Shown here: positions 24,753 through 63,419 of the stretch, one piece after another | Layout: every line of letters starts with the position of its first letter | How positions within the stretch are numbered: position 1 is the stretch's first letter | Origin: Escherichia phage CMSTMSU | DNA length: 64,000 nt | Sequence record: MH494197.1 | Direction: 5' to 3' (one strand) | The notes under the pieces: generated by a model | What the model was told of the DNA's origin: nothing | Database searches by the model: none | What the model saw: the letters and a program-made list of their open reading frames with translations, nothing else | Made by a program: the position numbers and the translations under genes

Positions 24753-25907
24753 ATGTTACCTTTTGTTAGAATGTTTGATTACGGGAATATTGCACCTGAA
24801 GCTCCAAAGATAAAGAAAGTACTGTGCGGTCTTGATAATTTGTACGTCCTCTATGACGATGGCTCACTTTATGGTTGTGGGGTTAATTCGTATTTTCAGT
24901 TAAACGTTACAAATACAGCAACAAGAAATACTTGGATATTAATTTCAGAAGGTGTTACTGATGCATGGGCTGGGGCGTACAATATTCTTTATATCAAGGG
25001 TGAAGAATTCATAATGCATGGAGTTACCACACAATTAGGCACAGGAAATACTATGATTCCGTTGGGTGGTTTGAATGTTACTTCTTCATTTCCACATATA
25101 TCTAATATTAAAATGATATCAATCGGTGCAGATACAATGCACTACGTTGATGCTAGTGGTTCGATTGTTTATGGTAGAGGCATGAATGGTAACTATTCAC
25201 TCGGTGGTGGGTATTCCACGGCTCAGAGTACTTTTGTTTCAGTTATTAATACCGGAGCTAATACAGTCCTTGATATATTGGGTACACAGAATAACACATT
25301 AATATTAACATCAAATGGTGAACTTCTCGGTTGTGGGAGTAGTGAGTATGGCTCACTTGGCGTAAGTCAAGGACAGTATACTACACTAGTAAGCAGGTTA
25401 ACCAGTGTTAAACTGTTTGGTGGTAACAGTACTGGTACTCTTGCTTATTCAGCCAGCAATATATACAACGCAGGTTGGCAGTATGTTGGTCAACTTGGTA
25501 ACGGTATTACAACGAACACACTAGTATATCCATTTGCATTTAACTCCACTACTATTGATAGTAACATACATAAAATATCAAAATCAAGTACATCTTCACG
25601 TGTTAATATGTACGCAACAACCGAAGGAAAGATATATAGTACTGGTGAATTTGGTAGAAATGGTTCTGGTGGTAGTTTGAGTAGATTCACCAATACACTA
25701 ACTTTAGATAATTACAACCCAGAAAAATCAGCATTATACACATGTGCACATTTTAGTATAGTATTTGATGGTAATAATCAAATTTATGCTTGTGGTTCTT
25801 TTTGTATGTGCGTTCTATTACCACGAACTCATGGTCTGCAATTACAATGCCGAAATGATACTATAAAACTATGCCAGTACTTGATGCTGGCATTTCTTTT
25901 GTATTAA
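24753..25907 (+). CDS. leader-tagged RCC1-like repeat protein F13 (intact, ~384 aa)
   Basis: Track ORF 24735..25907 trimmed to MLPFVRMFDYGN Met; colinear paralogue of F1. Confidence 0.8.
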   Translation: MLPFVRMFDYGNIAPEAPKIKKVLCGLDNLYVLYDDGSLYGCGVNSYFQLNVTNTATRNTWILISEGVTDAWAGAYNILYIKGEEFIMHGVTTQLGTGNTMIPLGGLNVTSSFPHISNIKMISIGADTMHYVDASGSIVYGRGMNGNYSLGGGYSTAQSTFVSVINTGANTVLDILGTQNNTLILTSNGELLGCGSSEYGSLGVSQGQYTTLVSRLTSVKLFGGNSTGTLAYSASNIYNAGWQYVGQLGNGITTNTLVYPFAFNSTTIDSNIHKISKSSTSSRVNMYATTEGKIYSTGEFGRNGSGGSLSRFTNTLTLDNYNPEKSALYTCAHFSIVFDGNNQIYACGSFCMCVLLPRTHGLQLQCRNDTIKLCQYLMLAFLLY

Positions 25908-25936
25908 ATATAGTATAATGAATAAAGGAGGAAAAT

Positions 25937-27070
25937 ATGTTACCTTTTGCAAGAATGGTTAAGTACGGAAATAAAAGACCATCTAATAATATCAAAAGAT
26001 TTCATGTACAACCAATAACAGTGTTTTGGTGCTCACCGAAAGTGGAGATTTGTATGGTTTTGGATTCAATTCAGGTGGTGAACTTGGCACTGGTGCAAAA
26101 CTAGTGTTACTTCAGTTATTCAAATTGACACTGGAGTTGATGATGTATGGGGTGGTAGTCTATGTGCAATGTACAGAAAAGGCGATGAATTCTTTGGCAG
26201 CGGGACGGTTCTTATTATGGTTCAAGTGCTGTTAACTCAACCACATTTGTAAATGTAACACACATATTCCAAGATATAGATATTCTTAATATTAAGAAAA
26301 TTAAAATGACAACAGGTTTGTTTATATTAATGCAAAACGGCAACTTATATGGATGTGGGGTAAACACCAATTGTCAATTTGGTACTGGTGAGGCAGTGAA
26401 TTTTCGTTATCCTATAGCTACATTAACACAAACGGATGTTGTTGATTTTGATATTTTAGGAAACTCTAGTATAATATTAAAGACCGATGGGTACATGTAC
26501 AGTGCGGGTGATAATGGTCGTGGACAACTTGGTAGTTCTACTGCAACCACACTTCTGGTATATACACAAATTAGTAAATTTCCAAACGTAACCAATTTGG
26601 ATCTGTTCGGACACTCACAAGTTACTTCATTATTCAAAGATAGTGATGGTAAAACGTGGTTGAGTGGTAATAGTTATGGTATTGATTACCCAGTAGTAGC
26701 TACAACATTATTCAGTAAAGAAGCACCAGTACCTGAAGGTACATTTCGTTTTATCAACACAAGGGCAGGGTCAAATACACCAATAATATGTACACCCACT
26801 GGGTATTATGTTGCTGGTACTAACCCTTATGGTGCATATGGTATAGGTACGAATGTAACTCTGACAACATTCACAAGAATGGATTCTATGGATAGATACA
26901 TATCTGATTATAATAATGTTCCTGTTTTCGATGGATGTTTCTATGGGACATATTTTGCAGTTGGGGAACGTCTGTTTGGTGCAGGTAATGGTAATACTGG
27001 TAATGTTCCGGATATACTGGATCACAGCGTAACTATGTGGAAATTAATTATAAAAATAATTAAACCTTAA
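25937..27070 (+). CDS. leader-tagged RCC1-like repeat protein F14 (frame breaks)
   Basis: ATG at 25937 behind AAGGAGG; N-terminus MLPFARMVKYGN; body = track ORFs 26026..26235 and 26306..27070. Confidence 0.65.
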
Positions 27071-27138
27071 TACTATGCCAGTACTTGATACTGGCTTTTC
27101 TTTGGTTAAATATAGTATAAAGAATAAAGGAGGGAATT

Positions 27139-28308
27139 ATGTTACCTTTTGCTAGAATGGTTAAGTACGGGAATACTATACCCAAACCCGCTGGTGTGAA
27201 GAAAATTAGTACTTCCATTAATCACGTTGGGATGTTATTCGATAATGGAAATTTATATCTACGTGGGGTGGTGGTGAGTATAAGTTAGGAAATGACAGTA
27301 CTGGATTCGTACAGAATGGTTGGGTTAAGTGTCCATATAGCGTTGCTGATGTTTGGTGCTTCACTTACGCGACAATTATACTTACTACAAGTGGTGAATT
27401 ATACTTAGCTGGACAATTGGGTTATGTTGGTGTAGTTGCAGCGAGCGTACGGATGGACTAATATTACATCTAATTTATCCTCAATACCTGCACTTAGTAC
27501 TATACAAAACATAGCTTATACTGAGACTACAATTTACAATGGTGCTATATTAATTTTGTTAAGCAACGGGGACTTATATGGTATAGGTCGTAATGGTGGT
27601 GGTGTATTAGGCGTTTCTGGAATCCAATCAACTGCACTTAAGATTGACACAGGTGTTACTTTAATTGCTGGCACAGACCGTTCAGCGGCGTTACATTATG
27701 TGAAAAATGGTCAATACTACAGATGTGGGAATAATTCTCGCTACAACCTAGGAACAAGCTCTTCTGTTTTATCTACATTTACGGTAAGTACAGATATCAC
27801 AGGAACCGTACTGGGATTGCATGTACTACAAATGCGACTTCAGTACTGACATCATATAATGGTACTATTAGAGTGTATAGTGCTGGGACGAATACCGATT
27901 ATACGTTAGGTATTGGTTATGGAGATACCAGTATAATAATGAGTCCATTTAGTGCTACACCTCCAATTTATGGTATTGTACCAGATGCGGCATCACTGAA
28001 TAATTCTTGTATTAATTCTAATATGATTGCGATGACACAGGGTGGTAAATTGTATACATGTGGTAATGGTGTTGCTCTTGGTAGAGAAATCACTGCATCG
28101 ACACCTAGAACGGCGTACTATCCAGTACTATTTGAGGATTCAAATACTGCACTTGATGTTAATGCTTTTGCAGTGCAGGGGGTTCCGGTGTGTTATACGC
28201 ATTAGTGGGGGCAAATGAGGTTTACTGGTGTGGTAGTGGTTCTATGTTCCGGAACAGAGTGCAGGTACACAACAAGTTAAAATGAAGAAAATGATTTTAC
28301 CAGAATAG
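27139..28308 (+). CDS. leader-tagged RCC1-like repeat protein F15 (frame breaks)
   Basis: ATG at 27139; N-terminus MLPFARMVKYGN; body = track ORFs 27436..27849 and 27873..28205; upstream -10 is TATAAA. Confidence 0.6.
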
Positions 28309-28317
28309 GAGGAAAAT

Positions 28318-29449
28318 ATGTTACCTTTTGCAAGAATGGTTAAGTACGGGAATATAAAAGTAAAGAGTACTATCCAAAAAGTTATCCTTGGTGGTGGTGG
28401 TCAATGTGTGGTAACATTACTCAGTGATGGTAGAGTGTATGGACGTGGATACAATACAACATATGGGTTGGGTACTGGTACAACAACATTCGTAAGTGAT
28501 TGGGTATTAATGGGCGATAATATTGTTGATATCCATTCAAATGGTGTTACTGGCACATTCCTTATTACCAAAGAAAATAGAATTTTGTATTCTGGTTTTG
28601 CGACACCAATCAATGGCACAACATCACATTATACACGTTTCACTGATTTAACATCAACTGTATTTGCTGCGGTGGATGTTAGTAATATTAAAACAATTAC
28701 GGGAAATGGTAATGTTACAATGGTTCTTTTGAATGATGGTTCACTTTATGGGAGTGCAAATACAGGGTTATAGGTAATGGTAGTAACGTTGCATTATCAA
28801 CACAAACATATGTGACTAATGATGTGCGTGATGTGAAAACATATCCATCAATGAACACTATAACAAAAATAATAATCAAATATTGGCTAGTGGTATTTTA
28901 TACCAAGGCGTGAACGGTACAAATTCATCAATAAACACGTCTTCATATACATTACTGTACACATTACCGAGTTCTGATTGTTTTCAATTTGCATTTGATA
29001 CATATACATTTGGATATGTTGACCCTAGTACTAACACTTCTTATATAAGAGGTATACCAATAAATGGTTCATTAGGTAATGGCGTTACTAATAATACAGC
29101 AGTTACAACATGGGTTACTAAAGTTTGGAATACACCAATTGATAGTTCTATACCTAATAAATCATATACAACTAACCATGTCTCCTTGTTCAATGATGGA
29201 AACTTATGGACAACTGGTGCATCTAGTGTCGGCTATTCCAATGGTACAAATAGCACAACAGCTAATACATGGACCAGTTCATCTAATTTACCATTCAACA
29301 CTAATAACATAACAGACTATGCTTTTGGTGGTAGTATTACTGTGGTGGTAATCGACTATAGGACTATGTACATACTAGCTAACAACGCCATTGCTGGTAC
29401 TGCTACGACAACTTATAAATTTGAGCCATATAATTCTCCACCAGTTTAA
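28318..29449 (+). CDS. leader-tagged RCC1-like repeat protein F16 (frame break)
   Basis: Track ORFs 28318..28773 and 28883..29449; N-terminus MLPFARMVKYGN; starts 10 nt after F15 stop behind GGAGG. Confidence 0.65.
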
Positions 29450-29479
29450 TATAATGCCAGTACTATGTACTGGCTTTCT

Positions 29480-30128
29480 TTACATATTATATAATGTGAA
29501 TGCTGTCACTTTACCAGTTGTTGTTAGTTCATTATAAAGATACTCCAATATTCTCGCACACTCTAAGTATATCTCGATATCATCATGAATAAGTGAGTAC
29601 TGAAATAGCTGTTCTTCAGATAATTTGTATTGACTTCCTTTTAATGAATTGAGAATATCTTTCACATCATCAAGTACTGGGTAAAGTACGAAATCTTCAT
29701 CATATTTTGAAGCAATAAATTCAAATCCACCACCATCAGTACTAGATATACCAATCAGTACTTTATCAACCAAGTTAATGTTTATATAACGGTTGTGATT
29801 TGGGTGAATTGAAATCTCAAACATACGAGTACTGTTACAATCAACATCAATATACAAATATACATCGTTGAATTTATAAGTTAAGCAACCGTACTCAAGA
29901 AAATCAGAGCAAATAATTGATGAGTTTTTCTCGTCTCTGCGTAATGCATCTTGATATTCTTTTCACGCATAAGTAATTCGAACTTTGCACTAAACTTGCC
30001 ACCAGTAAGATAATTAGTATTAGGACGTTTGTAACTTGCAACTGGTCGGTGGGATGATGTAAAGTATTTTTTGTGAATCGTTTCTGTTTAGTGAAATATT
30101 CTTGATAGAACTTACTTCTTTTATTCAT
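29480..30128 (-). CDS. hypothetical protein encoded antisense within the array (frame break)
   Basis: Track ORFs 29904..30128 and 29480..29857 joined by a shifted frame (GGKFSAKFELLMREKNIKMHY...); sits between F16 and F17. Confidence 0.4.
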
Positions 30129-30205
30129 GAGTACCTCAATTAAATCGCTGTAAAATTGTACATTATAAAATGATTAAATAAAGTATAACACAAGGAGATT
30201 TTATC

Positions 30206-31324
30206 ATGTTACCTTTCGTATTGTTATTTGATTATGGGAACGAAAAACAAGAAAGTTCTTATGATGTTAGTGTATATGGAAACAATAACTACATTTTAAA
30301 TAAACAAACTGGAAACCTTTTTGCATCCGGTGCTGCGCATTCATGGGTGATAACACAGTTAAGTATTATATTACCCAAATAGAATCAAATGTTCATAGCT
30401 GTGAGATAGGTTTCCTATCATCATGGATAATTAAGAAGGACAAAACTGTTTTCATTTTAGGAAACAAAAGCAGTATTGGATTAACTGATTCGACAACATC
30501 ATGGTTCGAAATTACAAACTTATTTTCTGCTGTTCCTGAAATATGGGACAACCTATTTGAATGTAAAGTTCAATTGGGATATAACTGCATACGTGTTATG
30601 ACACCACTAGGATCAATATATGCGATTGGTACAAACACTTATGGTGCATTGGGTACTGGTACTACATCCTCATCCACTTCGTTCGTTAAAAGTGGTGCTG
30701 TGGATGCTGTACGCATGGAATCAACAGAACGTTCAGTGTTCTATCAAAACAGTTCTGGACAATGGTTTGGATGTGGTGATAACACATATGGTATACTAGG
30801 TCTAGGAACTACCGCTAGTCGTGTAAACTCATACACCGCACCAGTATGGACTAATGCAGAAGCTGTTAGCTTCTCTAACCGTGGATCATATACAGCCTCA
30901 ATGGTACTCTATACTCATGTGGTGACAAAGTTAATGGTCAGCTAGGGATGGATATACACAAAGCATAGACGCTGCCGAGCACACCATACACCATAGGAAC
31001 CGCATTCCAAATTGGTAAGGCAATAACATCAGCTACACAAGCATCAGCCAACGTATTCATTGGTAAAGATAATAAGTTCTATGGTACTGGTAGTATTGCT
31101 GCTGGTATAAATGGTAGTACTAGTGCTGCATTAAGTAAAGTTACTGCGTTATCAGCATCACTACCACCTGACATTACATACAATGATATTATATCATTTA
31201 ATACAGGGACCGTAACTTTTATTCAAGCAAAGGACAACTATATTATGTTGGTAGAAGAACTTACATAGATAATAGTTCAGACGTTACCACACAGTTCAGT
31301 GTAATTGGTGGATTAGATAATTAA
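30206..31324 (+). CDS. leader-tagged RCC1-like repeat protein F17, divergent leader (frame breaks)
   Basis: ATG behind AAGGAG; N-terminus MLPFVLLFDYGN; body = track ORF 30343..30945 plus downstream frames ending ...VIGGLDN. Confidence 0.55.
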
Positions 31325-33856: not shown

Positions 33857-34626
33857 TTAAATTTTCTCAAGGAACATGTTTTCTGCCATTGACTCCCAAT
33901 CATATGGAAATTTATTATACAGACCAGCGATCAGTACTGGCATACGCAGAGAAGGTGAACGCAGCTTTTCTTCGTTGTTCAGCATCCAGTTTAAGATAGC
34001 TTTACAACCATTTTTATTAACCCCATTGTTCTCAAGAATATTAGTCTTGTTCATGATGTTCTCAATGTGAATCATAACTTCTTCGTTAGTGAACAGTTGA
34101 AGATCAACAAAGATACTACGAGTAATCAGTGCATCAATGTGTGGTGCTAAACTGCTTTTACCTTTAGCAATCTGTGACAGGTTTTGTTCGTCAGGAAGAT
34201 TACCTTCCCACGGAATTCAAACTGCTTAGGAATACCCTGCTGTTCCGTACTTCCCAGAAGTTGCATAAGATACAACCCGCTTCTCTGACGTGTCCAACAC
34301 GGCTTTAAGTAAATCAATATTGGTTTCATCACTGAAGATATCAACGTCATCAAGTAACAGTACTGATGCGGCATGACGTGAACGATACAGTGCTTCGTAC
34401 AGACCCATAGTGGTTACTTTACCGCTGATCTTTTGTAGTCGATTTCAAAGTTATCATCAGCTTTCTGCAAACGCTGGTCAACGTTGTAAGTTTTTCCAAC
34501 ACCACCTTTACCAGATACAATCAGGGAATTGATTGAATTAGCTTGGGTATCAAGTAAACATTCCAAAGCTGCCATCATGCTGTTGAAGTTCTTTTCGATT
34601 TGGATTGCTTTCTCTGTACGGGTCAT
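33857..34626 (-). CDS. P-loop NTPase (frame breaks)
   Basis: ATG at 34626 behind AGAGGA; Walker A SGKGGVGKT, Walker B-like VLLLDDVD, IFLTN; assembled from track ORFs 34414..34773, 34226..34408, 34147..34374, 33857..34075. Confidence 0.55.
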
Positions 34627-34654
34627 GTCTTTATCCTCTTGAGTTGATGAAATG

Positions 34655-34686
34655 ATTATAGCAAAAGGGCTGACTAGTGTCAACCC
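34655..34686 (-). promoter_or_regulatory. composite hairpin terminator with embedded promoter (TTGACA-17-TATAAT)
   Basis: Minus-strand GGGTTGACACTAGTCAGCCC hairpin then TTTTGCTATAAT; -35 lies in the stem. Confidence 0.55.
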
Positions 34687-34813
34687 TTTTGTTTTAGATA
34701 ATTTGTACTTCATCATAGATCTTGCACGATTTGCTTTCCGGGTTATTTGTAAATTTATACCTAGTGGAATCAAGAATTATTTTAAATCTTCTTTCACATA
34801 GTACTCATATAAT

Positions 34814-35011: not shown

Positions 35012-35332
35012 TATAAAGTTCTCTCTTCACTAAGTTTTTGTATTAAACTATTTCGGTAGCTCCATACTTAAAGTAAATTTCCTTAATCATTTCAAGATTA
35101 TGGATGCTTGTAGTTTCAGACCAACCATCCTCCATCAATTCACGTTCAATAATACCTTTCGTATTATGGATTTTAATATTTTCAGTTTGAAACAGTTTCT
35201 TACATTCAGTTTCGGCAGCAATACAATCAACTGGATTTTCAAATTTAAAAGAGCTAATACGTTTTATATCATAATAACATTTTAAGTTTTGTTCATATTC
35301 ACGACGACCGAGGATTGTTTCAATTCCATATT

Positions 35333-36611
35333 TTAGCCCAATATATTCACCTGCATTACATATACCACTAATATATGCAATTTTTGATTGCGATGTGCCT
35401 TACGAGGATTGCCACATCCACGCAAATGTATAGATGGTGTTTGCCAGAATTCATCACCACTTTCTGGATCAATAATACACACATTAGTACGGGCATCAAT
35501 ATACTCTACTTTACTGTAATCATATTGTTCATCGTGAATTTCGTTAGCCCTGTTGATAAATTCATCAATTGACATTTTATTTTTCAGGCCAGTTGATATA
35601 TTAGCACGATCATTATTACCACATCCCATCAAATGTGATGATGGTGTTTGCCAGAATTCACCATATACTGGATCTATAATACATACCTTAGTACTGTTGT
35701 TTACGTATACGACCTTACTATAATCATACAGATTATCATGCACCAAATTGGCCTTCTCGATAAATTCATCAAGTGTTAAGCGTTTACTCTGTGCCGTTTT
35801 TCAAAACCACGGATTGGGTTTCCATGACCTTTCCAATGGTAGATTGGTTCTTGCCAGAATTCACCATATACTGGATCTACAATACATACCTTAGTCCATG
35901 CACCAGTATACTCCACTTTACTGTAGTCATATAAATGACCATGTACTGCACGAGAACGTTCAATAAAACTTCGTTGGTGAATGTTTTATTTACTGAAGTT
36001 CCTATACGCCCACGTTCCATGTTACCATGCTTGGATTTTAAATGGTCATATGGCGTTTGCCAGAATTCACCATACACTGGATCAATAATGCATACTGGAG
36101 TTTTACTATTAACATATTCTACGTTTGAATAATCGAACGTATTTCCAAAACGTTCGATAGCTTCAGCTATAAATGTTTCAGTTGTTTTTGATTTAAGTTT
36201 TTACCATTTTCAATGGCACGTTGTGGGCTACCTGCACCTTTTAAATGGGAGCTGGGTTCTTGCCAGAATTCACCATACACTGGATCAATAATACATACCT
36301 TAGTGCTATTATTTTTATAAACAACTTTACTATAATCATAGAGGTTGTTATGAACTTTTTCTGCTCGTTCTATAAACGTTTGGGTGGTTAATTTGCCAAC
36401 ACCTGAACGATATGGATTCCTGACCGCGAATGTGATGTGACGGAGTTTGCCAGAATTCACCATACACCGGATCAATAATGCATACTGGTTCTTTAGCTTT
36501 TACATACACTGCTTTTTCGTAATTATAGAGATCACCATGTACATTTCGTGCAGCAATTAAAAAGTTTCTTGGTCGGTAACACGCATTTTCTTTATCCCTA
36601 GTACGTTTCAT
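35333..36611 (-). CDS. tandem-repeat protein(s), ~45-aa module repeated at least six times (frame breaks)
   Basis: Track ORFs 35333..35746, 35877..36077, 36167..36475, 36348..36611 and shifted frames repeat the module (F)IxRAxxVHxNLYDYSKVxYxxxxTKVCIIDPVYGEFWQTPxxHLxGxG. Confidence 0.5.
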
Positions 36612-36875
36612 TTCGATAGAGCTATAATAGCAAAGGGCTGACCGAAGTCAACTCTTTGATATGATAATATAATCATTCCATAAATTATATATATTGTTTT
36701 CAACACAATCATCATCGCTTAATTCTATAATTGACGAGATAAGTTCTGATAAGGTTTGTGTGTTCAAAACCGTATCACGATGTCTCAACCACCATTTCAT
36801 GGTGAGTGTTCGGATTTTGTACGGATTGTTTGAAAACTTGTATCTAGAAGTGTCAAGTATCATTTTAATCTCTAT

Positions 36876-37310
36876 TTACTTAATCATCTCGGTATAGTAC
36901 TCAGGTAACTCAACATCAGTAAATTTATACCACTTAGGCTTCATTTGGAGCTTCTCAATCAAGCGTTCACGAGACATTTTAATCTCTGAATCAGATGGTA
37001 CATAGTCCGCAAAACTCCGCAGGAAGCCGCTAATGTCGTTTAATTCAATGTTTTGAATCTTCATACCACGACGCAAACATTCGTTAACAATTTCAATATG
37101 ACGCTTCTGTAAGTACAATAACTTGTTGTAGAAGAATGTTACATGACCTGAACCTAACAGGTAAGTACTGTTAATTTTGAAATCACGTACACGCTTACGT
37201 GCTTGAACATGTTTTTGTACAGCACCAAATACACGTGGAAGTTCACGATATTCAGCCATCAGATGTTGGTCAGCAAGTTCTTTAACGTGTACTAAGTTAA
37301 TGCGGGTCAT
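36876..37310 (-). CDS. denV: pyrimidine dimer DNA glycosylase (T4 endonuclease V-like)
   Basis: Track ORF 36876..37367 trimmed to Met behind GAGAGGA; [35 protein letters not shown]...VRDFKI...GHVTFFY closely parallels T4 DenV as recalled from memory. Confidence 0.85.
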
Positions 37311-37314: not shown

Positions 37315-37533
37315 TCATCCTCTCGTCTTGATGAAATAATTATAGCAAAAGGGCTGACCGAAGTCAACCCGTTTTGAAAGGATTTTTAATGGTTTTCGTA
37401 CTGTATGTATTTTGCTTTGTAGTTCTTCTTCCCACAAAACATTTATATTATAAACTAAATCATTGTAGTCACTGTTCACAAAGATAAAATCATACTTCTC
37501 ATTAAAAGTATGAGAAATCAATTTCATTTTCAT
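37315..37533 (-). CDS. hypothetical protein (72 aa)
   Basis: Track ORF; 3' codons overlap the hairpin element, true stop uncertain. Confidence 0.3.
37339..37370 (-). promoter_or_regulatory. composite hairpin terminator with embedded promoter (TTGACT-17-TATAAT), promoter of denV
   Basis: Minus-strand GGGTTGACTTCGGTCAGCCCTTTTGCTATAAT. Confidence 0.65.
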
Positions 37534-37720
37534 AAGTATTATTGAACTTTTAAATTTATATGTTTCTTTTTCTTCTCCAGTTTTTGAACTTTGTATATTT
37601 TTATAAATTCCATGAATTCATCATTGGTCATTGTTTCAGCATCCAACAATACCCAACTTCACAATCTCATACCCGTCCAGATATCCGTAGGAACACTCAG
37701 GTGTTTCATAAGATGAACCA

Positions 37721-47927: not shown

Positions 47928-48368
47928 TTATCCATATACAGCCTCATGTATTACTCTTTTACTTTGGCGGTACTCATCCTTTGCTTCTTTCACTGACATG
48001 ATACGAACCAGTTTAGCACTACCACAATAGTACTGAACCTGACTACGACCAATGTCAACATGACTATCAGGAACTTCATATACTGATACAGCAAACCCTG
48101 CACGATGTAATTTACCCAAGTCCATAGTAAAGAACTTAAACAAATCATTCAAACTCTGACAGCCAAATGCCCAGCCACGTTTGATTGAATAGATTCCATC
48201 TTCAGTTGGTTCTGGTTGGAATTGCGAAGGCGTGGTCATGCACAAACGGTCAAATCCATTTTTAGTACTGTATCGTGAAGAGTACCGTGCGAACGGACCT
48301 ACTGTTTTGCTGGATCTAAGTTAGGTTCAATATAACTGAATTTAAGTTCAAAACGATATACGTACATA
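47928..48368 (-). CDS. hypothetical protein (frame break)
   Basis: Track ORF 47928..48245 plus upstream ATG at 48368 (MYVYRFELKF...) in a shifted frame. Confidence 0.35.
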
Positions 48369-49794: not shown

Positions 49795-50121
49795 TTACTT
49801 CTTACTAGTTAGTTTATCTTTCAAGATATCAACCCAAATGGAAACTTTACCAGCAAACAATGCATTAGTAAACCATACAATACCAACAATGTTCTCAACT
49901 AAATTCATAATTGAAACAAATGGTCCAATTGGTAATACAAAACTTACTAACCATGACAGTACTGAAATAAGTACTACAACGAAGAAGATTCGTGCAATGG
50001 GTGAGTCTAACATAAACAACTCACGAAACTCATCACGCTCGGTTTCGTCTTTAATGAAGAATTCGAAAACCATAACCCATAACAGAATTAGAGCAGGAAT
50101 TGAAATTAGAACTGATAACAT
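49795..50121 (-). CDS. small membrane protein (108 aa)
   Basis: Track ORF; hydrophobic. Confidence 0.5.
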   Translation of the reverse strand: MLSVLISIPALILLWVMVFEFFIKDETERDEFRELFMLDSPIARIFFVVVLISVLSWLVSFVLPIGPFVSIMNLVENIVGIVWFTNALFAGKVSIWVDILKDKLTSKK

Positions 50122-50179
50122 GTTTTATATCCTCAAGTTTAAGTGTTAAGTTTCAGACTACAAGAACCATTATACAGTA

Positions 50180-50422
50180 CTACAAACGTTTGTCAACAGG
50201 TTTTTCTTCAATAAGCATAAGATAACTGAAGACGAATAGTAATACAGATGCCATGTCAATAACCGTAAAGTTCACGGGAATGATAATAGACACTAGAACG
50301 AGTGCCACGTTTAGCAAGAATACCGTAGTGATATCCACCAGCTTTCGTTTAGTGGCTACTGCTACTAGTGTAGGGTAGAACATAAACAATAATGCGACTA
50401 CAAAACTCAATACTAGATACAT
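50180..50422 (-). CDS. small membrane protein (80 aa)
   Basis: Track ORF; ends ...LIEEKPVDKRL. Confidence 0.45.
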   Translation of the reverse strand: MYLVLSFVVALLFMFYPTLVAVATKRKLVDITTVFLLNVALVLVSIIIPVNFTVIDMASVLLFVFSYLMLIEEKPVDKRL

Positions 50423-50429
50423 TTCTTTT

Positions 50430-51072
50430 CACCTTAAGAAAATTATAACATAAAACAACCTCAACATCTGGCTCATCATACAAGTACTCAAAGCGTTCTT
50501 TACTACGCTTAGTACCGATGTACTCACCATTCTTATGCCAACGCCACCCACCACTCTCTGGTTGGTCAGACTTCAGTACTGGATGATAGCACAAGACAAT
50601 TTCTTCTGGACCTTCAATAAGGTTCTTGTACTTCGTCAAAATCTGTTCAAGCGTATCTGCTACACCATAAGATGGGTGCATAAGATAAGACTCAGGGCGT
50701 GCACGACCACTTGGTAGAATGTCATCAGTACTATTAAAGATAGCACGGAAGTCTTCTGACGTGTATAAACTTCCATCTTCATGGATCATGGGATACTCAT
50801 CCACTACATCATAATCAGTGAAGTGTTCAATCGCATGTCCGGTCTGTAACCTGCGAGGATACCTGTATGTTTCGTCTGTACAATAGTCATAACAGATGTA
50901 CTATTGTTTACATTAGGATCATGAATTTCAGCCCAAAAGGATGATGAGGATCAAATGTAGCATTAACTAAAGTACAATCACCAATGTAGTCGAAATTAGT
51001 TTCTTTAAAGTTTAAAGAAACACCACGCAATGCCCAATCAGGAGAAGTGATGAAATTAAGATTAACTAACAT
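50430..51072 (-). CDS. hypothetical protein (frame break, 3' end approximate)
   Basis: ATG at 51072 behind GAGGA (MLVNLNFITSPDWALRGVSL...) continues by frame break into track ORF 50349..50804. Confidence 0.4.
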
Positions 51073-51310
51073 AGTATCCTCAGTTGCGGTTGTTTTGATA
51101 CAGTTATTATATCAAAGACGTGTCAATTTGTACAACATTTATTGTAACTATTTCGTACATAAAATCAATTGCATTGAACTCTGCATACCACTCTACAATC
51201 TCACAAGCAGCATCAACTTGGTTTTCGCATTAACACGTCTGGCATAGGTGCTGCTCATTTTGAATCTACCATATTCATAGACATTGTAGACACCATGACA
51301 CCACCACATT

Positions 51311-51529
51311 TTAGTCATTAATGCTAGGCCATACAGTGAATTGTAAGTTCTGGTATTCGAATTTACCAATATCATTCTTCTTACGGAATGATTCTTCAAC
51401 CTGAATTTCTGCGTCGTACTGACCATCGGCCTTTACTACGTACTTAAAATTTTCTACATGTGAAAAACGATACCCGTCTCCGTCTTGCTTGGATACTTGA
51501 ACTGACCCTTCAACTAGATATAAATTCAT
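51311..51529 (-). CDS. hypothetical protein (72 aa)
   Basis: Track ORF; overlapping track ORF 51193..51426 may be its continuation. Confidence 0.4.
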   Translation of the reverse strand: MNLYLVEGSVQVSKQDGDGYRFSHVENFKYVVKADGQYDAEIQVEESFRKKNDIGKFEYQNLQFTVWPSIND

Positions 51530-51558
51530 TTGTCATTCTCCATCATATTCAGTGAGTA

Positions 51559-51753
51559 TTACACTATGTACTGTTTCAACATAGCGTTGTGTTTTGGTGT
51601 GTTGTACTTAGTTACTTCATCAAACAATTTAAATAGTGCATGTGTTGGACTTAATGCACGAACAAACACATCAATCTTCTGTACTTCTTTCTTATAGCCA
51701 CGTACATTATTAAACTCAGACACATGCTCATAAACAATGTAGTAACGATTCAT
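51559..51753 (-). CDS. hypothetical protein (64 aa)
   Basis: Track ORF. Confidence 0.4.
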   Translation of the reverse strand: MNRYYIVYEHVSEFNNVRGYKKEVQKIDVFVRALSPTHALFKLFDEVTKYNTPKHNAMLKQYIV

Positions 51754-52007
51754 ATATTAAGTAGTTCCATAAATTCATCGATCAAGGAAGTTCTAATGCA
51801 CATAACAAATTCAAAATCAACATCGATAGTATCGAGTAGTTTGAACAACTTTGGTACATTTGGGTCATTCAACTGGAAGTTATGAATCAAGCTCTGTTGA
51901 AACACACTTTCTTCAGTACTGTAATCAATAACAAAATATTCAGCTACACGGTGGTGAATAAACATCATATAATATCTGACGTTTATTGTGTGTTTCTGAA
52001 CCGACAA
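51750..52007 (-). CDS. hypothetical protein (85 aa)
   Basis: Track ORF; start overlaps upstream stop. Confidence 0.4.
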   Translation of the reverse strand: MSVQKHTINVRYYMMFIHHRVAEYFVIDYSTEESVFQQSLIHNFQLNDPNVPKLFKLLDTIDVDFEFVMCIRTSLIDEFMELLNI

Positions 52008-52261
52008 TATATAAGTTCTATTTCATACGAACCTGCCGAGGATCTATCATAAAACACAATTTCAGTACTGATTATTTCACTACCATCACTTCGTTCATGA
52101 AAACATACATCGGCATATCGTTTACCATTGGGCTTCAAAATCTCATGAGTTGTTTTACCATAACATTTATCAGTTTCAATGTGAATTTTGTCTTGATATT
52201 CAGAACGTCTTACATCATTTCCACGATTAAACAATAAGATCAACAACTCATTAATATCCAT
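51983..52261 (-). CDS. hypothetical protein (92 aa)
   Basis: Track ORF. Confidence 0.4.
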   Translation of the reverse strand: MDINELLILLFNRGNDVRRSEYQDKIHIETDKCYGKTTHEILKPNGKRYADVCFHERSDGSEIISTEIVFYDRSSAGSYEIELIYCRFRNTQ

Positions 52262-52515
52262 TATTTCGCCTCGATAACCTTAAGGTTAACAAAATCACCT
52301 TTTACTTTCATGCATTTGAATTCAGTGCGAGTTTCATCCCCACTATCGCGAGGCCAATGAGTAGCAGAGTAGCACTGGTCAGGCGTTTTATATACACCTT
52401 CACCAATAGTACGAGTGATCTCACCATTGGTGAGAACTACTGCGAGATATAAAGTAAGCATGGGAATTCCTATAAAATTTATTAATAATAATAGCACCCA
52501 AACCAAGTACTGCAA
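52261..52515 (-). CDS. membrane-anchored hypothetical protein (84 aa)
   Basis: Track ORF; hydrophobic N-terminus. Confidence 0.45.
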   Translation of the reverse strand: MQYLVWVLLLLINFIGIPMLTLYLAVVLTNGEITRTIGEGVYKTPDQCYSATHWPRDSGDETRTEFKCMKVKGDFVNLKVIEAK

Positions 52516-52610
52516 TAATTGAAGATACCCACATTACCGCATTCACTGCACCAGTAAGTTCTTTATCAAACTCCTGCACTTCTTGCGGTAATCTTCCCAC
52601 TCTTTGTTAT

Positions 52611-52826
52611 TCACACTGCCACTCCTAATAGGTCGGTAGCTTTCTTCAGTACTACGTCAATTGTTTCCAGTACTGCACCTTTGTGTTCAATTGATACAAT
52701 ATTATTATAAGTATCAAGGTCCAAGTACTCCATGTATTCAGTTTTGAATACACGAACATCAGTACTAGTGATTTTAATATCACAACCTTTATCCCAAATA
52801 ACCTGCATCATTTCATTGGTAGTCAT
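52611..52826 (-). CDS. hypothetical protein (71 aa)
   Basis: Track ORF. Confidence 0.4.
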   Translation of the reverse strand: MTTNEMMQVIWDKGCDIKITSTDVRVFKTEYMEYLDLDTYNNIVSIEHKGAVLETIDVVLKKATDLLGVAV

Positions 52827-53083
52827 TATTCAACCTTATCATAAACAAGTTTGTGTGTGCTTAGTACTTTGTTGAGATGTCGGGCATTCATATACATACA
52901 ATCGCTCTGACGTTTTTCCCAACCACCACAGATACGACCTGATTGTGTACATATTTCATACTCGTTAATAAAAGACTTACCTGTGAATGTACAATCCTGA
53001 CGAACTAAGTCTTTTGCACTAAACCTGCCGTCATCATTACATGCTGTAAGAAACATTGTACAGAATACAAAGACCACAGTCAA
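52826..53083 (-). CDS. putative lipoprotein (85 aa)
   Basis: Track ORF; N-terminus MTVVFVFCTMFLTAC has a lipobox-like LTAC. Confidence 0.45.
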   Translation of the reverse strand: MTVVFVFCTMFLTACNDDGRFSAKDLVRQDCTFTGKSFINEYEICTQSGRICGGWEKRQSDCMYMNARHLNKVLSTHKLVYDKVE

Positions 53084-53460
53084 TAGTTTTTAATCATTGA
53101 ACATCACCCCAACGGAAGCCCTTCATATAATTCAAATTCACCTCAACTAGTTCATGTGTTTTGTACACCAAATTGAGAGAGTTTTTGTAACATCACCGGT
53201 TCAGATTCATAATTCACACAATACCCTTCGATTCGGAGAACATTGTTAGTCCATGACTCCACTCAATCCAAATTTCATTTGGATAATAAACCATATCTTC
53301 GTTGAACGTATGGAATTGGTCCATTGGTAAGTGACCTTCAACTTCAATTACTTCAGCACTTCGTGCCAGTTTTCAAGCTTGTACTTTATTTCAGCAAGAA
53401 ATTCTTCATTATTCAGACGAGTTAAATCACCTGCTACACGTGTTGTATCAAGGCTCATTG

Positions 53461-53706
53461 TTATTCTCCATGAATTACGGAAGTGTTGATTCGTGTTTTA
53501 CCGCTAGTGTATCCAGTACTTGTATTTGCATTAGGACAATAAACTGTATACAAGGTTACGTCAGCACCGTCCTTTTGCATACGATAAATCTTACATCCGG
53601 CTTCTTTTAATTCAGTCGGGAGAATAAAATCACTTGTGCGTTCTTTGGTTGAAGCATCACATGCAGTGAGTAAAAATGCGACGAGTACTGCTACGATATA
53701 TTTCAT
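53461..53706 (-). CDS. putative lipoprotein (81 aa)
   Basis: Track ORF; N-terminus MKYIVAVLVAFLLTAC has a lipobox-like LTAC. Confidence 0.5.
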   Translation of the reverse strand: MKYIVAVLVAFLLTACDASTKERTSDFILPTELKEAGCKIYRMQKDGADVTLYTVYCPNANTSTGYTSGKTRINTSVIHGE

Positions 53707-54014
53707 TAACGAACCTCCACTTCTTGAGAAAGAGCATGAGTCAGTGCATTTGAATTCGAACCATTCATTTCACGCTGACATACAAACATAATGGCATCTT
53801 GTACTGAACCTGCGATTTCATACTCACGACCTTCTGGATCAGTTACCAGATGTTCAACGATACAACCACCTCTCAGTACAGAAGCACCAGTACTTACACT
53901 AATTCTGTAACCTAAGAAATCAAACTGCATACATGCGTCAGTAGGTTTCATCCAATAACCGCTGTTTTGATTCAAATCGATGATTACAAAACCTTGAGTG
54001 TTAGTTTGAAACAT
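53706..54014 (-). CDS. hypothetical protein (102 aa)
   Basis: Track ORF. Confidence 0.45.
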   Translation of the reverse strand: MFQTNTQGFVIIDLNQNSGYWMKPTDACMQFDFLGYRISVSTGASVLRGGCIVEHLVTDPEGREYEIAGSVQDAIMFVCQREMNGSNSNALTHALSQEVEVR

Positions 54015-54230
54015 AGTTAATTCCTCATTTAATTTAAAGGGCGGGAACGCAGTGACGAGTACGATTATGCTGTCTTTCCTTTCACTGCATTCCCTTTGAT
54101 ATAAACATTATACAGTACTGATATCTTATGTCAAGTATTAATCACCAAAAATCATCAGATACCCAAACCAACCCACACAGATGACTAAGCTAACAATACC
54201 AAAGATAATCTCTAAAGTCATGTTACATCC

Positions 54231-54431
54231 TTAATCAATGATTTTATATTCACGATGACCATAGAATCCAGCCTCAAGGATGCGATTACCGTCAGCATCT
54301 TCTAAATCCCACCCACGGGATGTTTCGGCAATAATAGTCATGATGTGACCTCTTGGGAAAATTCCACTCAAGGTGGATACATCCTCAAGTAATTGAACCT
54401 TCTTACCAACATTCGAATTTGATTTAAACAT
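54231..54431 (-). CDS. hypothetical protein (66 aa)
   Basis: Track ORF. Confidence 0.4.
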   Translation of the reverse strand: MFKSNSNVGKKVQLLEDVSTLSGIFPRGHIMTIIAETSRGWDLEDADGNRILEAGFYGHREYKIID

Positions 54432-54635
54432 ACTTTACCCTTATTCGTTGATTACGTCAAGTACTTTGTCCAGTTTCTTACCAATACTATCCTTTGGTTT
54501 ATCACTATTCTGGAATACATTAGTACTGCAATACTCAGGACGGGTATTAGGAAACTTCTCGTTCATCCGAGTGACCATATACACCAAGAATGATACCTAC
54601 GATAAGAATGATGATTTGCATGATATATCCTCTAA

Positions 54636-55428
54636 TTAAATTACATACGGTTTATAGTAATGAATCTCGTTTGCGATTGCAGTGAAAACTTTATTATTAA
54701 ATCTTTCACCATAATCACGAAGTGATTCACCTTCTTCGCTTTCAATGAAGTAATTATATACTGGTAGACGTGCGGTGTCAACACCTATAAATGATTTCAT
54801 GTAAATTTGTACTAAACGATTCATTCCTTCATTTAAGCATTGCACCTCAAAGTGCTTGATACCTTTGTCTAAGTGTTTGAATGCATTCATGATACCACGT
54901 TTAAAATCACGCTGCATAGTACTGAATAGATTCTCAGGAACACTGTAATAGGTGACATTGATTTAAGAATGTATGTATCTTTAGCATTCTTAATATACTC
55001 AATAAAGCAGTAGTTAACGTCAGGCTCGATAGAACGATCAGCGTTATGATACCAGTGTTTAAACTCACTGTACTCAGCGAACTTATGCTGGCGTAATGCG
55101 TTACAATCTTCACACAGTGCAGTCATGTTCTCTTTATCATTACCGCCCTGAAGACAGTCCAGTACATTATGGTCTAACGTCATGCGTACAAGGCGTTTCC
55201 TTTAAGTACATAAGGTCTGAATTTATAACGGTCTTTAGTACTGTGTTTATGTAAAGTGAATACCACATTGGATTCACCACAACAATCACATTTAAAGCCA
55301 TCACGTGACATTACATGAATGAGTTTTCGAGTATTTGGGCCGAACTCAGATTTAGTAATGTTGCCAACAATTTCTGATGGGTCGTAGTATTTTGAATTCC
55401 GGCGAATCAATTCATCTATAGTGCTCAT
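54636..55428 (-). CDS. HNH endonuclease (frame breaks)
   Basis: Track ORFs 55180..55428, 54887..55183, 54636..54917 are consecutive; contain KCDCCGES...HKH and DHNVLDCLQGGNDKENMTALCEDCN. Confidence 0.55.
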
Positions 55429-55964
55429 TTTATATTATTCCTTCTATGTTACAACCTATAATTATTTTTGTAACTTCGATAACTCTTACCAAATGGTATC
55501 CGTGAAAAAGTTAAAACCATACATTTGTGCTAATGCATCGGCTTCAGATTTTGCACGGATACATGATAGATATAGTTCTCGTATATCGTCATCCAACGAT
55601 GCTTGTTTCTCGTCATTGATAACAATAGAACGAATCTCAAAACGAACACCATAACTCATTTAGTTTGTCCAACAATTAGTTTCTCTCTAGTATTACTATT
55701 GTAACACCACATTAATTCTTCACCAACTGTTCTAAGTGAAACGCTGTTTACTTGTTCATAAGTACTGTCACGTACTGCAATGCATTGATTCATTGAATTC
55801 ATTGGGGTGATTTGTACACCAGATTGTGGTGAAAGAGCAATAATTAAAAGATTACTGAATTCATTAGATATTCCTTAGTGGTTAATCATCCATCTCTTCG
55901 AGATGTCTGTTCGCTTCTAATACTACGTATTCTACGCGAATGAATCATAACTGTCAAGGACTTT

Positions 55965-56490
55965 TAATATTGACGGGATTTGAGGAAGGATTTTTCTTCC
56001 CCACATGGAGGGAATTTGACGCTGATGGTATCAGAGCTATTGCATTGAAGATTACTCATAATGAGTGCGAAAGCGGGTCATCCTGTTTCTCTCTACTTCA
56101 GTTTCATATGACGGTCTACACTTTTAAACATAGTGTATCTTCATTAAGTATCTATGCAATCAAATACTTAATGTGAGTACTCAAATTTTGGACGCAACTT
56201 TCCTGTACAAAATTCGATAACTCTCCTTAGATAATTCGTAAGGTGTTATCCTTATATGTCTATCGAGGAACCATCAGCTATCCTAACGTGGTTCTTTATA
56301 CAGCCGCATTGCCGTGAGGGGTTCAAACTATGCCCACATCTAACGGGTTTCTTTTGCTGTTCGCTACAATGAAAAGCTCATCTATCCTTTACATTTTCAA
56401 GTGAAGTAGGGGAAGATTGTCAGTACCAGTACTGTCATTGTGATTGTACATAGATCATTGTATCACCATTAATAAATTTGTCCCATAAAA
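55965..56490 (-). ncRNA. candidate structured non-coding region
   Basis: ~500 bp with no minus-strand ORF over 30 codons between terminator 56488..56515 and a TTGACA-17-TAGAAT promoter at about 55935-55963; locally GC-richer; 9-bp stem CATTAAGTA..TACTTAATG. Confidence 0.25.
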
Positions 56491-56515
56491 AGGCTGACCG
56501 AAGTCAACCCTTTAA
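56488..56515 (-). terminator. hairpin terminator after the sigma factor gene
   Basis: Copy of the recurring GGGTTGAC-TTCG-GTCAGCC hairpin with T-run; no TATAAT here. Confidence 0.5.
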
Positions 56516-56517
56516 TC

Positions 56518-57480
56518 TTAAAAATCTTCGAACTCGTAACCTTGCATCTTCACCATCTTACGCAGTCGTTCCATTGCTTCAGAGTACTTACGGTGCAATG
56601 AAGAACGAGCAGTCATGACCTTACCCTTCTCATCTTCAAAACCACTCTCAATGATTTCTCGTAGCGTTTCTGGTTCAGAATAAGAACCAATACCATGTAC
56701 ACGTTCAATCAATTCACGGTCTTTGGCAGATAGGTTACTCATCATTTCTGCAATACTTTGTACCAGTGGGTACTGACAGTTTCTACGCCTAAGTTGTAAT
56801 CAGGTTCAACTGAAGTAACAATGTCAGATAATGTACTTTCTGAATCATTACTCATTTTCATATTCAATGCTACATAAGTGTTATTGTAAGTTAGACAATT
56901 CTTAACGTGTTGAATCTCAATACCAGTCTCTTTTGACACCATCTCAGGAGTTGGGTATTTACCATGTTTCCTTTGATACTCTTCTACACAACGTTTCACA
57001 TAAATGTTATTAACACTCATATAACGTGGGAAATGCACTAGATAATTAGCATCTGCACTTTCGTTATAGATTGTCATGTACACAGTTGTTGTTGCATATG
57101 TAATGAACTTAACATTTTGGTAGTGTCGAACGTATGAATTGCTCGCATTAAACCTTCAACACCATAAGAAATCTTATCTTCAAATGGGATGAAACATGTA
57201 CACTTACGTGCAACACTTACTACCATTGGATAGTTGTAGCGAACCAAAAGGTCAATATTCTTTTCAACGTCAATACCATCACGCACTGCTTGGATGAGCA
57301 TTTCATTCGTTATCCCTTTAGGGCGAGTTAAGCTGATACCTGTTTTGGTTTCTCAAACTTGTGACCGTCATGTTCTTCTTCTTCGACGGAATCAAGAGCC
57401 TCTAATACGTTGACTTCTTCACTAGCAAAACACTCATCCAGTACTTCTTCAGAAATTGCATTTAAATCAAGCTTTTTCAC
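56518..57480 (-). CDS. sigma-70 family sigma factor (frame breaks)
   Basis: Track ORFs 57074..57301, 56742..57083, 56518..56745 plus a GTG-initiated N-terminal piece behind GGAGAAG; region-2-like YGVEGLMRAIHTFD, region-4-like LSAKDRELIERVHGIG...TLREI...ARSSLHRKYSEAMERLRK. Confidence 0.6.
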
Positions 57481-57602
57481 TTACTTCTCCTAATGAATGA
57501 AATCAAAAACGGTATACATTAATATTATCATCGGTATAGATATCATGGTTATGAACATCCATGAAGGTATCAAATACCTTATCAAGAAGAGTATTATACT
57601 CT

Positions 57603-57860
57603 TCATGTACTGCTATCAAGCATGTATTCACCACCACTACCCATAAAGAATGTATAATCATTATGGAGATAATCAATCTTCTTGGTAAACTTACCCTTAT
57701 TAACGATTAAGTGAATGATGTAATCTTTTGACACAAGAACACAGTGACAACTCGCCTTGCGGTCTGGTATCACAGTCTCTTGTGAAATCAAGTATCTCAG
57801 TACTTTGTTAATTTCACTAACCTCACCGCAAGCACTAAACAGTCGGTCGTGTACATACAA
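57603..57860 (-). CDS. hypothetical protein (85 aa)
   Basis: Track ORF. Confidence 0.35.
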   Translation of the reverse strand: MYVHDRLFSACGEVSEINKVLRYLISQETVIPDRKASCHCVLVSKDYIIHLIVNKGKFTKKIDYLHNDYTFFMGSGGEYMLDSST

Positions 57861-58416
57861 TGTTTTTGTGAAACTACACCATAACTAAGTTTTGGTTTCA
57901 ACGGGAATAGGTTCAAAATGAACGTTGCTCAGTTGATGTCACTTTTGAATCAGTAAGTAATACTCCCAAGCGTTTATCAATATAAACAGTCGTCATATTA
58001 AACCTTATCTAAAATTTATCATAGATATAATATTCTTTATCGTTGAATACATTAATTCCGGATCGAAGCGTTGAAGTGTATTCATGTATAATGAACTTTT
58101 AAATAAAAATACAATGCAACAAATTCAGATATATGCATATTCTTTTTATTATTACATAAATTCTTTAGCATTTTAATGCTATCAAAATCATCTTTATCAT
58201 ATCTGTACTGGTAAAATTATATCTATTGAACTGACACTCATAGATACGAAGTGCCATTATGTCAATACATGCTTTAGATTTACAGTACTTATTCAATACG
58301 TCATAATCACCCACACATAATGCTACAAAGATTTTATGCAAGCGTAGCTTTACCTTCAATAGTATAATAACCAAAGAACTTACTGATTAAGTAATGTATA
58401 AATCTAAGCATTGGAT

Positions 58417-58674
58417 TTAGAATTTCTCCGAAATTACCAGTGTATCATCATAGTCATCAGCAACCGTATTCAGTACTTCCAAATTACTTTCACCAGAAAT
58501 ACTTTGTACTTCGTTCAAAAGATAGTTTAGATCAACTTTAGTTACTTTTTCTGAATCAAACACACAGAAAGTCAATTCAGCGTTTGGACAGATCTTCTTC
58601 AGATTATCAGCAACAACTTGTTTGAAGTTAAAAGATGGGAAGCAACGGTTAACTGCAACGAGAATAGATTTCAT
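58417..58674 (-). CDS. hypothetical protein (85 aa)
   Basis: Track ORF. Confidence 0.45.
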   Translation of the reverse strand: MKSILVAVNRCFPSFNFKQVVADNLKKICPNAELTFCVFDSEKVTKVDLNYLLNEVQSISGESNLEVLNTVADDYDDTLVISEKF

Positions 58675-58748
58675 AATGTTTTCCTTTTTAGCTGATAATT
58701 AAATTAGGAGCACATTGTACTCCATGTTATTGGTTAAGTCAAATACTT

Positions 58749-59000
58749 TTAGATACCGAGTGCCGAATTTAATTCTTTACGCTTATTGTATGAATCAGAT
58801 TCAATCTTACTTTTCTTGTTGAAAAGGGATTCGATATCCTTATAGATTGCTTCGATAGATTTAGTTACTACCCATTCGGATTCCTGAAGCATAGCTTGAA
58901 GACGTGCGTACTCAACTTTGATAGTACTGCGAAGTTCTTCACAAGCTTCTTCGTTCTTAATTAGTGCTTCACTAAGTTCTTTGACCTTATCGATGTTCAT
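58749..59000 (-). CDS. hypothetical protein (83 aa)
   Basis: Track ORF; charged, helical-looking (MNIDKVKELSEALIKNEEACEELR...). Confidence 0.45.
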   Translation of the reverse strand: MNIDKVKELSEALIKNEEACEELRSTIKVEYARLQAMLQESEWVVTKSIEAIYKDIESLFNKKSKIESDSYNKRKELNSALGI

Positions 59001-59054
59001 AAGTTCCTTACCATTTCCCAGTTTTGATGTAATAATTATATATCTCTCAATAAC

Positions 59055-59378
59055 TCACGTCAACTGTTTTCCGTACCTTTCTCTGCCATTTTTGTGATGT
59101 GCCATTTGAGTACTGATTTGTGTACCATAAAAATGTGAATGCAAAGACTGTAATGGCTGCTGAAGTAACACTATTAGATAAAGACCAAGTTGGATGTTAG
59201 TACCTAAAATAACAATAAATGGATATAACACAATCAATCTACTGTAAGGTTCGTCTCCAGTATCACGGATAAATCCAAGCCTTTCATGATCAGTATCCAT
59301 AGTGACAATTGGACAGAACATAAGTGCAGACATAACAGCAATACCAATTTGTGCTACATTGGCAATTGTAAACCACAA
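59055..59378 (-). CDS. small membrane protein (107 aa)
   Basis: Track ORF; hydrophobic. Confidence 0.4.
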   Translation of the reverse strand: MWFTIANVAQIGIAVMSALMFCPIVTMDTDHERLGFIRDTGDEPYSRLIVLYPFIVILGTNIQLGLYLIVLLQQPLQSLHSHFYGTQISTQMAHHKNGRERYGKQLT

Positions 59379-63373: not shown

Positions 63374-63378
63374 CAAAA

Positions 63379-63408: not shown

Positions 63409-63419
63409 CTATATCTTAT

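Follow-up and report, generated by a model that had tools for sequence, protein, structure and literature searches.

Here, we examine a 64,000-nucleotide stretch of the genome of Escherichia phage CMSTMSU (sequence record MH494197.1; the whole stretch is referred to below as the window) and one open reading frame (ORF) on its minus strand, denV. Taken as a whole, our data are best explained if this ORF is the denV gene of an Asteriusvirus (Rak2-like) jumbo coliphage, CMSTMSU, and encodes a glycosylase/apurinic-apyrimidinic (AP) lyase of the T4 endonuclease V type, and we hold this view with high confidence. By sequence, by functional residues and by fold, DenV belongs with T4 endonuclease V in one family, and all features of that family that can be assessed computationally are present in it.

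Among all chain sequences of the Protein Data Bank (PDB), the best phmmer match to DenV is T4 endonuclease V (2end_A, E 6.3e-49). Residues 1–130 of the 144 align with residues 1–131 of the T4 enzyme, at 60% identity over 130 residues, and entries for T4 endonuclease V are the sole matches in this search. The family model PF03013 (Pyr_excise) recognizes DenV with 57.1 bits (gathering cut-off, 23; E 2.4e-15), as does PHROG 1183, "endonuclease V N-glycosylase UV repair enzyme", over residues 1–132 (E 2.6e-55). In NCBIfam, no model matched DenV or either of the neighbouring endonucleases. The likeness to the T4 enzyme is far above chance. An earlier reading of the window from its letters alone (the sequence-only reading) had compared the N-terminal ~60 residues with T4 DenV, and pointed to the N-terminal Thr, a 21-residue block and the motif GHVTFFY. 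These observations hold up: counted on the phmmer alignment, 49 of 61 residues are identical (~80%), Thr2 is kept, and both blocks are identical to T4. When 5.8 billion proteins were searched, DenV proved 100% identical to a 144-aa protein, "UNVERIFIED_ORG: endonuclease [Escherichia phage CMSTMSU]", encoded on a 386,442-bp contig. The gene extends from an ATG at 37310–37308 to a TAA at 36878–36876. A longer in-frame reading (163 aa) from a TTG at 37367 was rejected; that start lies inside the promoter and hairpin described below, and its use would bury the catalytic N-terminal Thr.

An alignment of 127 DenV homologues shows which residues are conserved. DenV starts MTRINL, such that Thr2 directly follows the initiator Met; this residue is present in 126 of 127 homologues, the remaining one being gapped at that position. 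The catalytic Glu23 is present as well, and is invariant (127/127). Residues that contact DNA in the T4 enzyme are kept, namely Arg3, Arg22, Arg26, Arg117 (R116 in the query) and Lys121 (K120 in the query), and the same is true of His16 and Glu20. The C-terminal aromatic segment of T4, Trp128-Tyr129-Lys130-Tyr131, corresponds to W127-Y128-K129-F130 in DenV. F130 represents a conservative Tyr-to-Phe change, and Phe is the commonest residue at this position in the jumbo clade of 49 DenVs described below, throughout which most of the functional residues checked are invariant. An AlphaFold2 model of DenV, built from a 54-sequence alignment, has a mean predicted local distance difference test score (pLDDT) of 89.6 and a predicted template-modelling score (pTM) of 0.85. 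Foldseek superimposes the model on 2END with template-modelling scores of 0.86/0.90 and a root-mean-square deviation of 1.2 Å over 130 columns; against the PDB, four T4 endonuclease V entries are the sole fold matches below E 0.001. Thus, DenV resembles T4 endonuclease V (PDB 2END, 1VAS, 2FCC) in its residues, its all-alpha fold and its similar size. More distant, at just 37–40% identity, are the Pyr_excise enzymes of the Ackermannviridae, such as LIMEstone1 DenV; they are of the same family, begin with the MTRIN motif and have the catalytic Glu. A50L of Chlorella virus PBCV-1 is a further Pyr_excise (PF03013) glycosylase.

If the mechanism known for the T4 enzyme carries over to the window DenV, the initiator Met would be removed, freeing the alpha-amino group of Thr2. 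UV-damaged duplex DNA would be bound via Arg3, Arg22, Arg26, Arg116 and Lys120, with the DNA kinked and the base across from the dimer flipped out. Next, with the assistance of Glu23, the Thr2 amine would attack C1′ of the 5′ pyrimidine in a cis-syn cyclobutane dimer to form a Schiff base. Beta-elimination would nick the strand, leaving host excision-repair enzymes to complete the repair.

The nucleotide sequence places the window among jumbo phages. A megablast comparison of the window with 50,697 phage records identified Asteriusvirus-type jumbo phages, the closest at 97–98% identity. Positions 25000–49999 match fEgEco12 at 97.6% over 83%; Ecwhy_1, BF17, Turkey3, WPEC3 and WPEC5 at 97.5–98.3% over 50–77%; and the type phage, 121Q, at 87.8% over 54%. 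Positions 50000–64000 match Asteriusvirus-type relatives at 97.8% over 100%, and positions 1–24999 are more mosaic, with a best record of 93.5% over 48%. For the 2.5 kb around denV, matches are solely to large Asteriusvirus-type phages (the records among the matches listed are all of 347–384 kb); there are no T4-type phages among the megablast matches around denV. The GC content of the window is 35.7%, and the published value for CMSTMSU is 35.6% (PMC6256653). NCBI taxonomy places CMSTMSU in unclassified Asteriusvirus, and the high nucleotide identity, judged on 64 kb, is that of a member of this Rak2-like genus. The sequence-only reading had proposed a large phage distinct from T4, which agrees well with an Asteriusvirus of ~386 kb. 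It had also named bacterial best matches for DenV as an outcome that would speak against it. The best protein matches are in fact phage; two of the best 120 are labelled "Escherichia coli", and these lie on contigs of 357 kb and 192 kb. Lytic Asteriusvirus genomes occur within E. coli assemblies (PMC12768965).

DenVs of other Asteriusvirus and Rak2-like phages (WPEC3 CDS127, 121Q gp217, fEgEco12 g571, CBB_519) belong to the same subfamily as that of the window, and their genes occupy the same early-region position. Identity to the window DenV is 87% for 121Q and 64% for Pectobacterium phage CBB. A 2017 study, which treats the Rak2-like group as a distant relative of the T4-type phages, listed CBB_519 among the homologues of T4 (PMC5259590). 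A literature search on denV in jumbo phages found nothing specific.

The 144-aa reading of DenV must be viewed in light of the quality of the sequence. Deletions in homopolymers and at Dcm-methylated CCWGG sites are typical of unpolished nanopore data, and the window is an error-rich assembly of this kind. The published CMSTMSU genome is a Canu assembly of MinION reads; Albacore 2.1.3 was used for base-calling, and no polishing step is described (PMC6256653). Identity of the window to fEgEco12 and WPEC3 is ~98%, yet there is one gap opening per 200–250 bp. Quantified on positions 25000–49999, indels with respect to close relatives comprise 126 deletions in the window and 7 insertions; 86 of these 133 lie within homopolymers of at least 3 bases, and 18 at CCWGG sites. 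The whole 64-kb window contains no CCWGG (Dcm) site, as compared to 25 occurrences of the control GGWCC, and wherever relatives have a CCWGG site in the aligned parts, the window is altered (18/18). It follows from this loss signature that the host had Dcm-methylated the phage DNA. Of the 44 fEgEco12 genes that map to 25–50 kb, 31 are frame-broken in the window or find just a partial match there, among them the gene for a 495-aa virion protein.

Two deletions lie within denV itself. With respect to WPEC3 and fEgEco12, one C is missing from a CCC run, and 15 nt on, a CCAGG site has lost its CA, after which the frame is restored. The true DenV is most likely the 145-aa WPEC3 sequence, and the 144-aa product a slightly corrupted reading of it, because the two deletions put residues 97–101 out of frame. 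The segment in question is PAEFCQ in WPEC3, P-A/V-E-F-C-N/Q in all relatives and PQEFRG in T4, and apart from the two indels and three synonymous changes, denV is the same in the window and WPEC3. One could instead suppose that both deletions are real, and that the altered loop 97–101 disables DenV or marks the early decay of a gene now inactive. The deletions are, after all, present in the window sequence as given, and the lowest confidence of the DenV model (residues 91–100, pLDDT 71) falls in the altered segment. We regard this scenario as highly improbable, however. Both deletions match exactly the error signature seen window-wide (one homopolymer, one CCWGG site); the frame is regained after 15 nt, and the catalytic residues are all outside 97–101; and about 70% of the neighbouring genes would be broken too, including that for the 495-aa virion protein, which is incompatible with a plaque-forming phage. 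The possibility that the fragmented ORFs at 35333–36611 and 33860–34776 are decaying pseudogenes was also considered, and was rejected in view of the window-wide deletion signature. More generally, broken genes, odd lengths and apparent pseudogenes in the window are suspect and need checking against polished relatives.

The sequence-only reading had used DenV as a taxonomic anchor to T4. While the gene call stands, the anchoring is not supported. When all stop-to-stop ORFs of the window with 60 aa or more, 290 in number, were compared with the complete T4 genome by tblastn, three loci gave any match, and DenV (172 bits) is the only strong one. A gene for a P-loop/AAA-like ATPase (33860–34776, minus strand; phrog_1250, function unassigned) is the only other clear T4 homologue; its intact copy in fEgEco12 (L013 8879–9649) is 38.5% identical over 239 aa to the T4 ORF at 54.3–55.4 kb. 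This ATPase gene is split into four frames by indels in the window and directly adjoins denV in fEgEco12, and the copy in KVP40-like phage D482 is 45% identical to T4. The third locus (47931–48320, minus strand) weakly matches the T4 MotB.2 hypothetical protein, with 39% identity over 56 aa (E 2e-5). Unlike T4 denV, the gene in the window is carried by a 386-kb phage and lacks ipII and ipIII as neighbours; these genes are absent around denV, there is no synteny, and the flanking genes have no T4 counterpart. Judged by genome-wide T4 similarity and synteny, then, the window is not from Straboviridae or Tequatrovirus, and on these sequence comparisons DenV as a taxonomic anchor to T4 is weakly justified.

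A phylogeny of DenV homologues had been proposed as a check in the sequence-only reading. In a neighbour-joining tree (131 columns, 200 bootstraps), DenV falls within a clade of 49 with 84% bootstrap support, which includes CBB and contigs of 237–386 kb. The sister group of this clade is formed by the main set of enterobacterial T4-type DenVs (64%), and DenVs of Morganella and Proteus phages lie outside (71%). In 48 of the 49 members, the segment WYK is followed by the C-terminal signature T-x4-P-x-[YWF]-[YFWV], whereas most T4-type DenVs have a YGK-type tail instead. The window DenV continues after WYK with 15 other residues, predicted to form a short helix, where T4 has YYGKAIYA. Jumbo-phage DenVs are a separate subfamily with a C-terminal helix of their own. 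The member of the clade that lacks the signature, P0005 (242 aa), has a 112-residue C-terminal tail unlike that of its relatives. An extra acidic C-terminal tail, ending ...DEIEEQIKDEMNNY, is seen in some jumbo-phage DenVs (P0002, P0003, P0004, P0006, P0014, P0018) and not in those of the window and WPEC3. The fEgEco12-type DenV (171 aa) has this longer acidic tail, in contrast to the short tail of the window and WPEC3. Database DenVs of 158–171 aa were also considered as products of mis-called starts; this was rejected, as the 171-aa protein of the fEgEco12 type carries a C-terminal extension instead.

How a jumbo phage came to encode an enzyme so similar to that of T4 can be explained in several ways. 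Recent capture from a Tequatrovirus (T4 or close kin), with the window belonging to, or having recently recombined with, a T4-type phage, could account for the 21-residue block identical to T4. It can hardly be true, however, given that megablast of the 2.5 kb around denV gives no nucleotide-level match to T4-type phages, that genes flanking denV are without T4 counterpart, and that DenV groups in the 49-member clade with CBB and contigs of 350–386 kb, apart from Tequatrovirus. DenV also bears the C-terminal signature of the jumbo clade, and this separate, clade-specific tail rules out a recent Tequatrovirus capture.

It is also possible that denV was inherited vertically from an ancestor of the T4-type and Rak2-like phages, with 60% identity kept through strong constraint on a small, densely functional enzyme. 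Were this true, DenV would be a legitimate, if slow, taxonomic marker. About 41 homologues are common to the Rak2-like phages and T4, including the repair genes gp46/47, uvsX and endonuclease VII, and have been read as vertical (PMC5259590). Moreover, bootstrap support for nesting of the jumbo-phage DenVs inside the T4-type radiation is just 64–71%, and the jumbo clade having a signature of its own, as opposed to YGK-type tails, fits two sister subfamilies. On the other hand, identity values across phages are difficult to reconcile with strong constraint. Between T4 and the Rak2-like phages (CMSTMSU, CBB), DenV is 60% identical, as compared to 23–38% for the core proteins of T4 and CBB (PMC5259590, Table 3). 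Between T4 and Morganella phage Rgz1, a member of the Straboviridae, DenV is only 56% identical, while virion and packaging proteins are mostly at 62–77% (TerL 77%, major capsid protein 76%, gp13 67%, sheath 66%, portal 64%, tube 62%, gp15 60%, gp24 49%). Between T4 and KVP40-like Vibrio phage D482, DenV is 40% identical, while NrdA, NrdB and gp52 reach 56%, 53% and 42%, respectively. This discordance with the core genes indicates that DenV is not simply slow-evolving, and implies that denV follows the pool of enterobacterial hosts and not the lineage of the phage. For these reasons, we consider vertical descent rather unlikely. Old lateral exchange among enterobacterial phages would best explain the high T4 likeness of jumbo-phage DenVs, and on these identity values we lean towards it with some confidence.

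Several points weigh against our interpretation. The case for exchange consists of identity comparisons and a neighbour-joining tree of ~130 columns, the key nodes of which have moderate support (64–76%). Because the C-terminal signatures differ, two sister subfamilies fit better than nesting, and vertical descent under unusually strong constraint is compatible with the data. A jumbo-phage origin is established within the 49-member clade solely for those members on contigs of 237–386 kb. The compensated frameshift in denV may be real in the CMSTMSU isolate. Finally, activity of DenV, removal of the initiator Met and use of the promoter are all deduced from sequence. A more specific version of the exchange model is that denV passed between T4-type and Rak2-like phages before the Rak2-like phages diversified, and that the C-terminal helix of the recipients (T-x4-P-x-Y-Y-x-x-M/L), sometimes acidic-tailed, gives the enzyme a new partner or localization during infection. 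This idea is speculative, and we think it more apt to be wrong than right.

Features of the denV region are listed in Table 1.

Table 1. Coordinates of denV and of associated features in the window.
Feature	Position	Strand	Remarks
denV coding sequence, pyrimidine-dimer DNA glycosylase/AP lyase	36876..37310	minus	Window reading: 144 codons, then stop
Five out-of-frame codons of denV, residues 97–101 (LRSFA)	37008..37022	minus	Between two deletions; probable sequencing artefact
Shine-Dalgarno sequence GAGAGGA	37318..37324	minus	7 nt before the denV ATG; conservation extends to WPEC3 and fEgEco12
Sigma-70-type promoter-like site, TTGACT-17 nt-TATAAT (-10 preceded by TG)	37339..37367	minus	Consensus scan, 11/12 matches; putative function
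Hairpin GGGTTGAC-TTCG-GTCAGCCC, then TTTTG	37351..37370	minus	Reads as terminator of the upstream gene
71-aa ORF, function unassigned	36648..36863	minus	Begins 12 nt past the denV stop; hypothetical protein in WPEC3
Next hairpin copy	36636..36653	minus	Located where the 71-aa ORF ends; the denV transcription unit probably terminates here

The -35 hexamer of the putative denV promoter sits in the 5′ arm and loop of the upstream hairpin. The core of this hairpin occurs in eight copies in the window, all on the minus strand, as compared to 0 expected; copies end at 36653, 37369, 41820, 42498, 44072, 44850, 48426 and 56509. The frequent terminators remarked on in the sequence-only reading are therefore real features of the sequence, insofar as hairpin terminators do recur between genes. 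Elements are arranged in the order A-rich run, hairpin, T-run. In five of the eight copies, a TATAAT-like box lies 17 nt past the in-hairpin TTGACT, followed by a conserved ATTTCATCAA and then by the next gene. The composite element reads as a terminator whose stem holds the sigma-70-type -35 of the gene that follows. From consensus matches, the likely transcription unit consists of promoter, denV, 71-aa ORF and terminator; the 71-aa ORF has no match in Pfam or PHROG. denV probably lies in an early region of short ORFs, where host RNA polymerase would transcribe it, probably together with the 71-aa ORF, from a promoter whose -35 is inside the terminator hairpin of the preceding gene. In CBB, the endonuclease V gene CBB_519 is located in the presumed early region, which has many short ORFs and RpoD-like promoters and also contains the gene for a sigma factor, CBB_513 (PMC5259590). 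Close relatives of CMSTMSU have an annotated sigma factor gene as well, mapping to positions 50000–64000 of the window, in line with the sigma factor remarked on in the sequence-only reading.

Local mosaicism is evident around denV. Three features are common to the window and WPEC3: a DenV with a short tail, the 71-aa ORF and, downstream, an endonuclease gene of 1551 nt; fEgEco12-type phages lack both extra genes. The endonuclease gene, encoding 516 aa (window ~35100–36611, minus strand), is an insertion downstream of denV seen only in the window and WPEC3. Its product matches phrog_681 and phrog_559 and contains repeated modules with the motif DPVYGEFWQTPxxHL. An intact copy is present at L001 4730–6280, whereas in the window, sequencing indels break the gene into about five ORFs. 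When the window and WPEC3 are compared with fEgEco12, the denV sequence diverges at its 3′ end, beside the inserted endonuclease gene. On the other side, a gene for a 137-aa HNH endonuclease lies just upstream of denV in WPEC3 and fEgEco12 (L001 3533–3946, L013 10287–10700) and is missing from the window, where ~270 bp of unrelated sequence (37375–37641) replaces it, as in Ecwhy_1-type phages. The product of the HNH gene, Gp570 of fEgEco12, is listed as absent from Ecwhy_1 (PMC13070987). Pfam returned nothing for the 516-aa or the 137-aa endonuclease; their labels (endonuclease, HNH endonuclease) come from PHROGs only. The two flanking differences show that denV is bordered on each side by presence/absence polymorphisms of free-standing endonuclease genes. 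Polymorphism of this type is common in large lytic phages. Elsewhere, at ~25000–31300 (by match to L013 943–6335), the window contains a run of ~375-aa paralogues that carry the label "regulator of chromosome condensation" (RCC1-like) in relatives; in the window, they are partly diverged and frame-broken.

Finally, DenV-type glycosylases are textbook enzymes, and denV of CMSTMSU is an ordinary example, already annotated there and in relatives; there is nothing new about the gene. Neither the C-terminal helix specific to its clade nor the likely lateral exchange is more than a minor point. A lone conserved accessory repair gene can overstate kinship to T4, and is unfit to place a sequence on its own. 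In the case of CMSTMSU, the likeness of DenV to its T4 counterpart makes the two phages look more closely related than they are.

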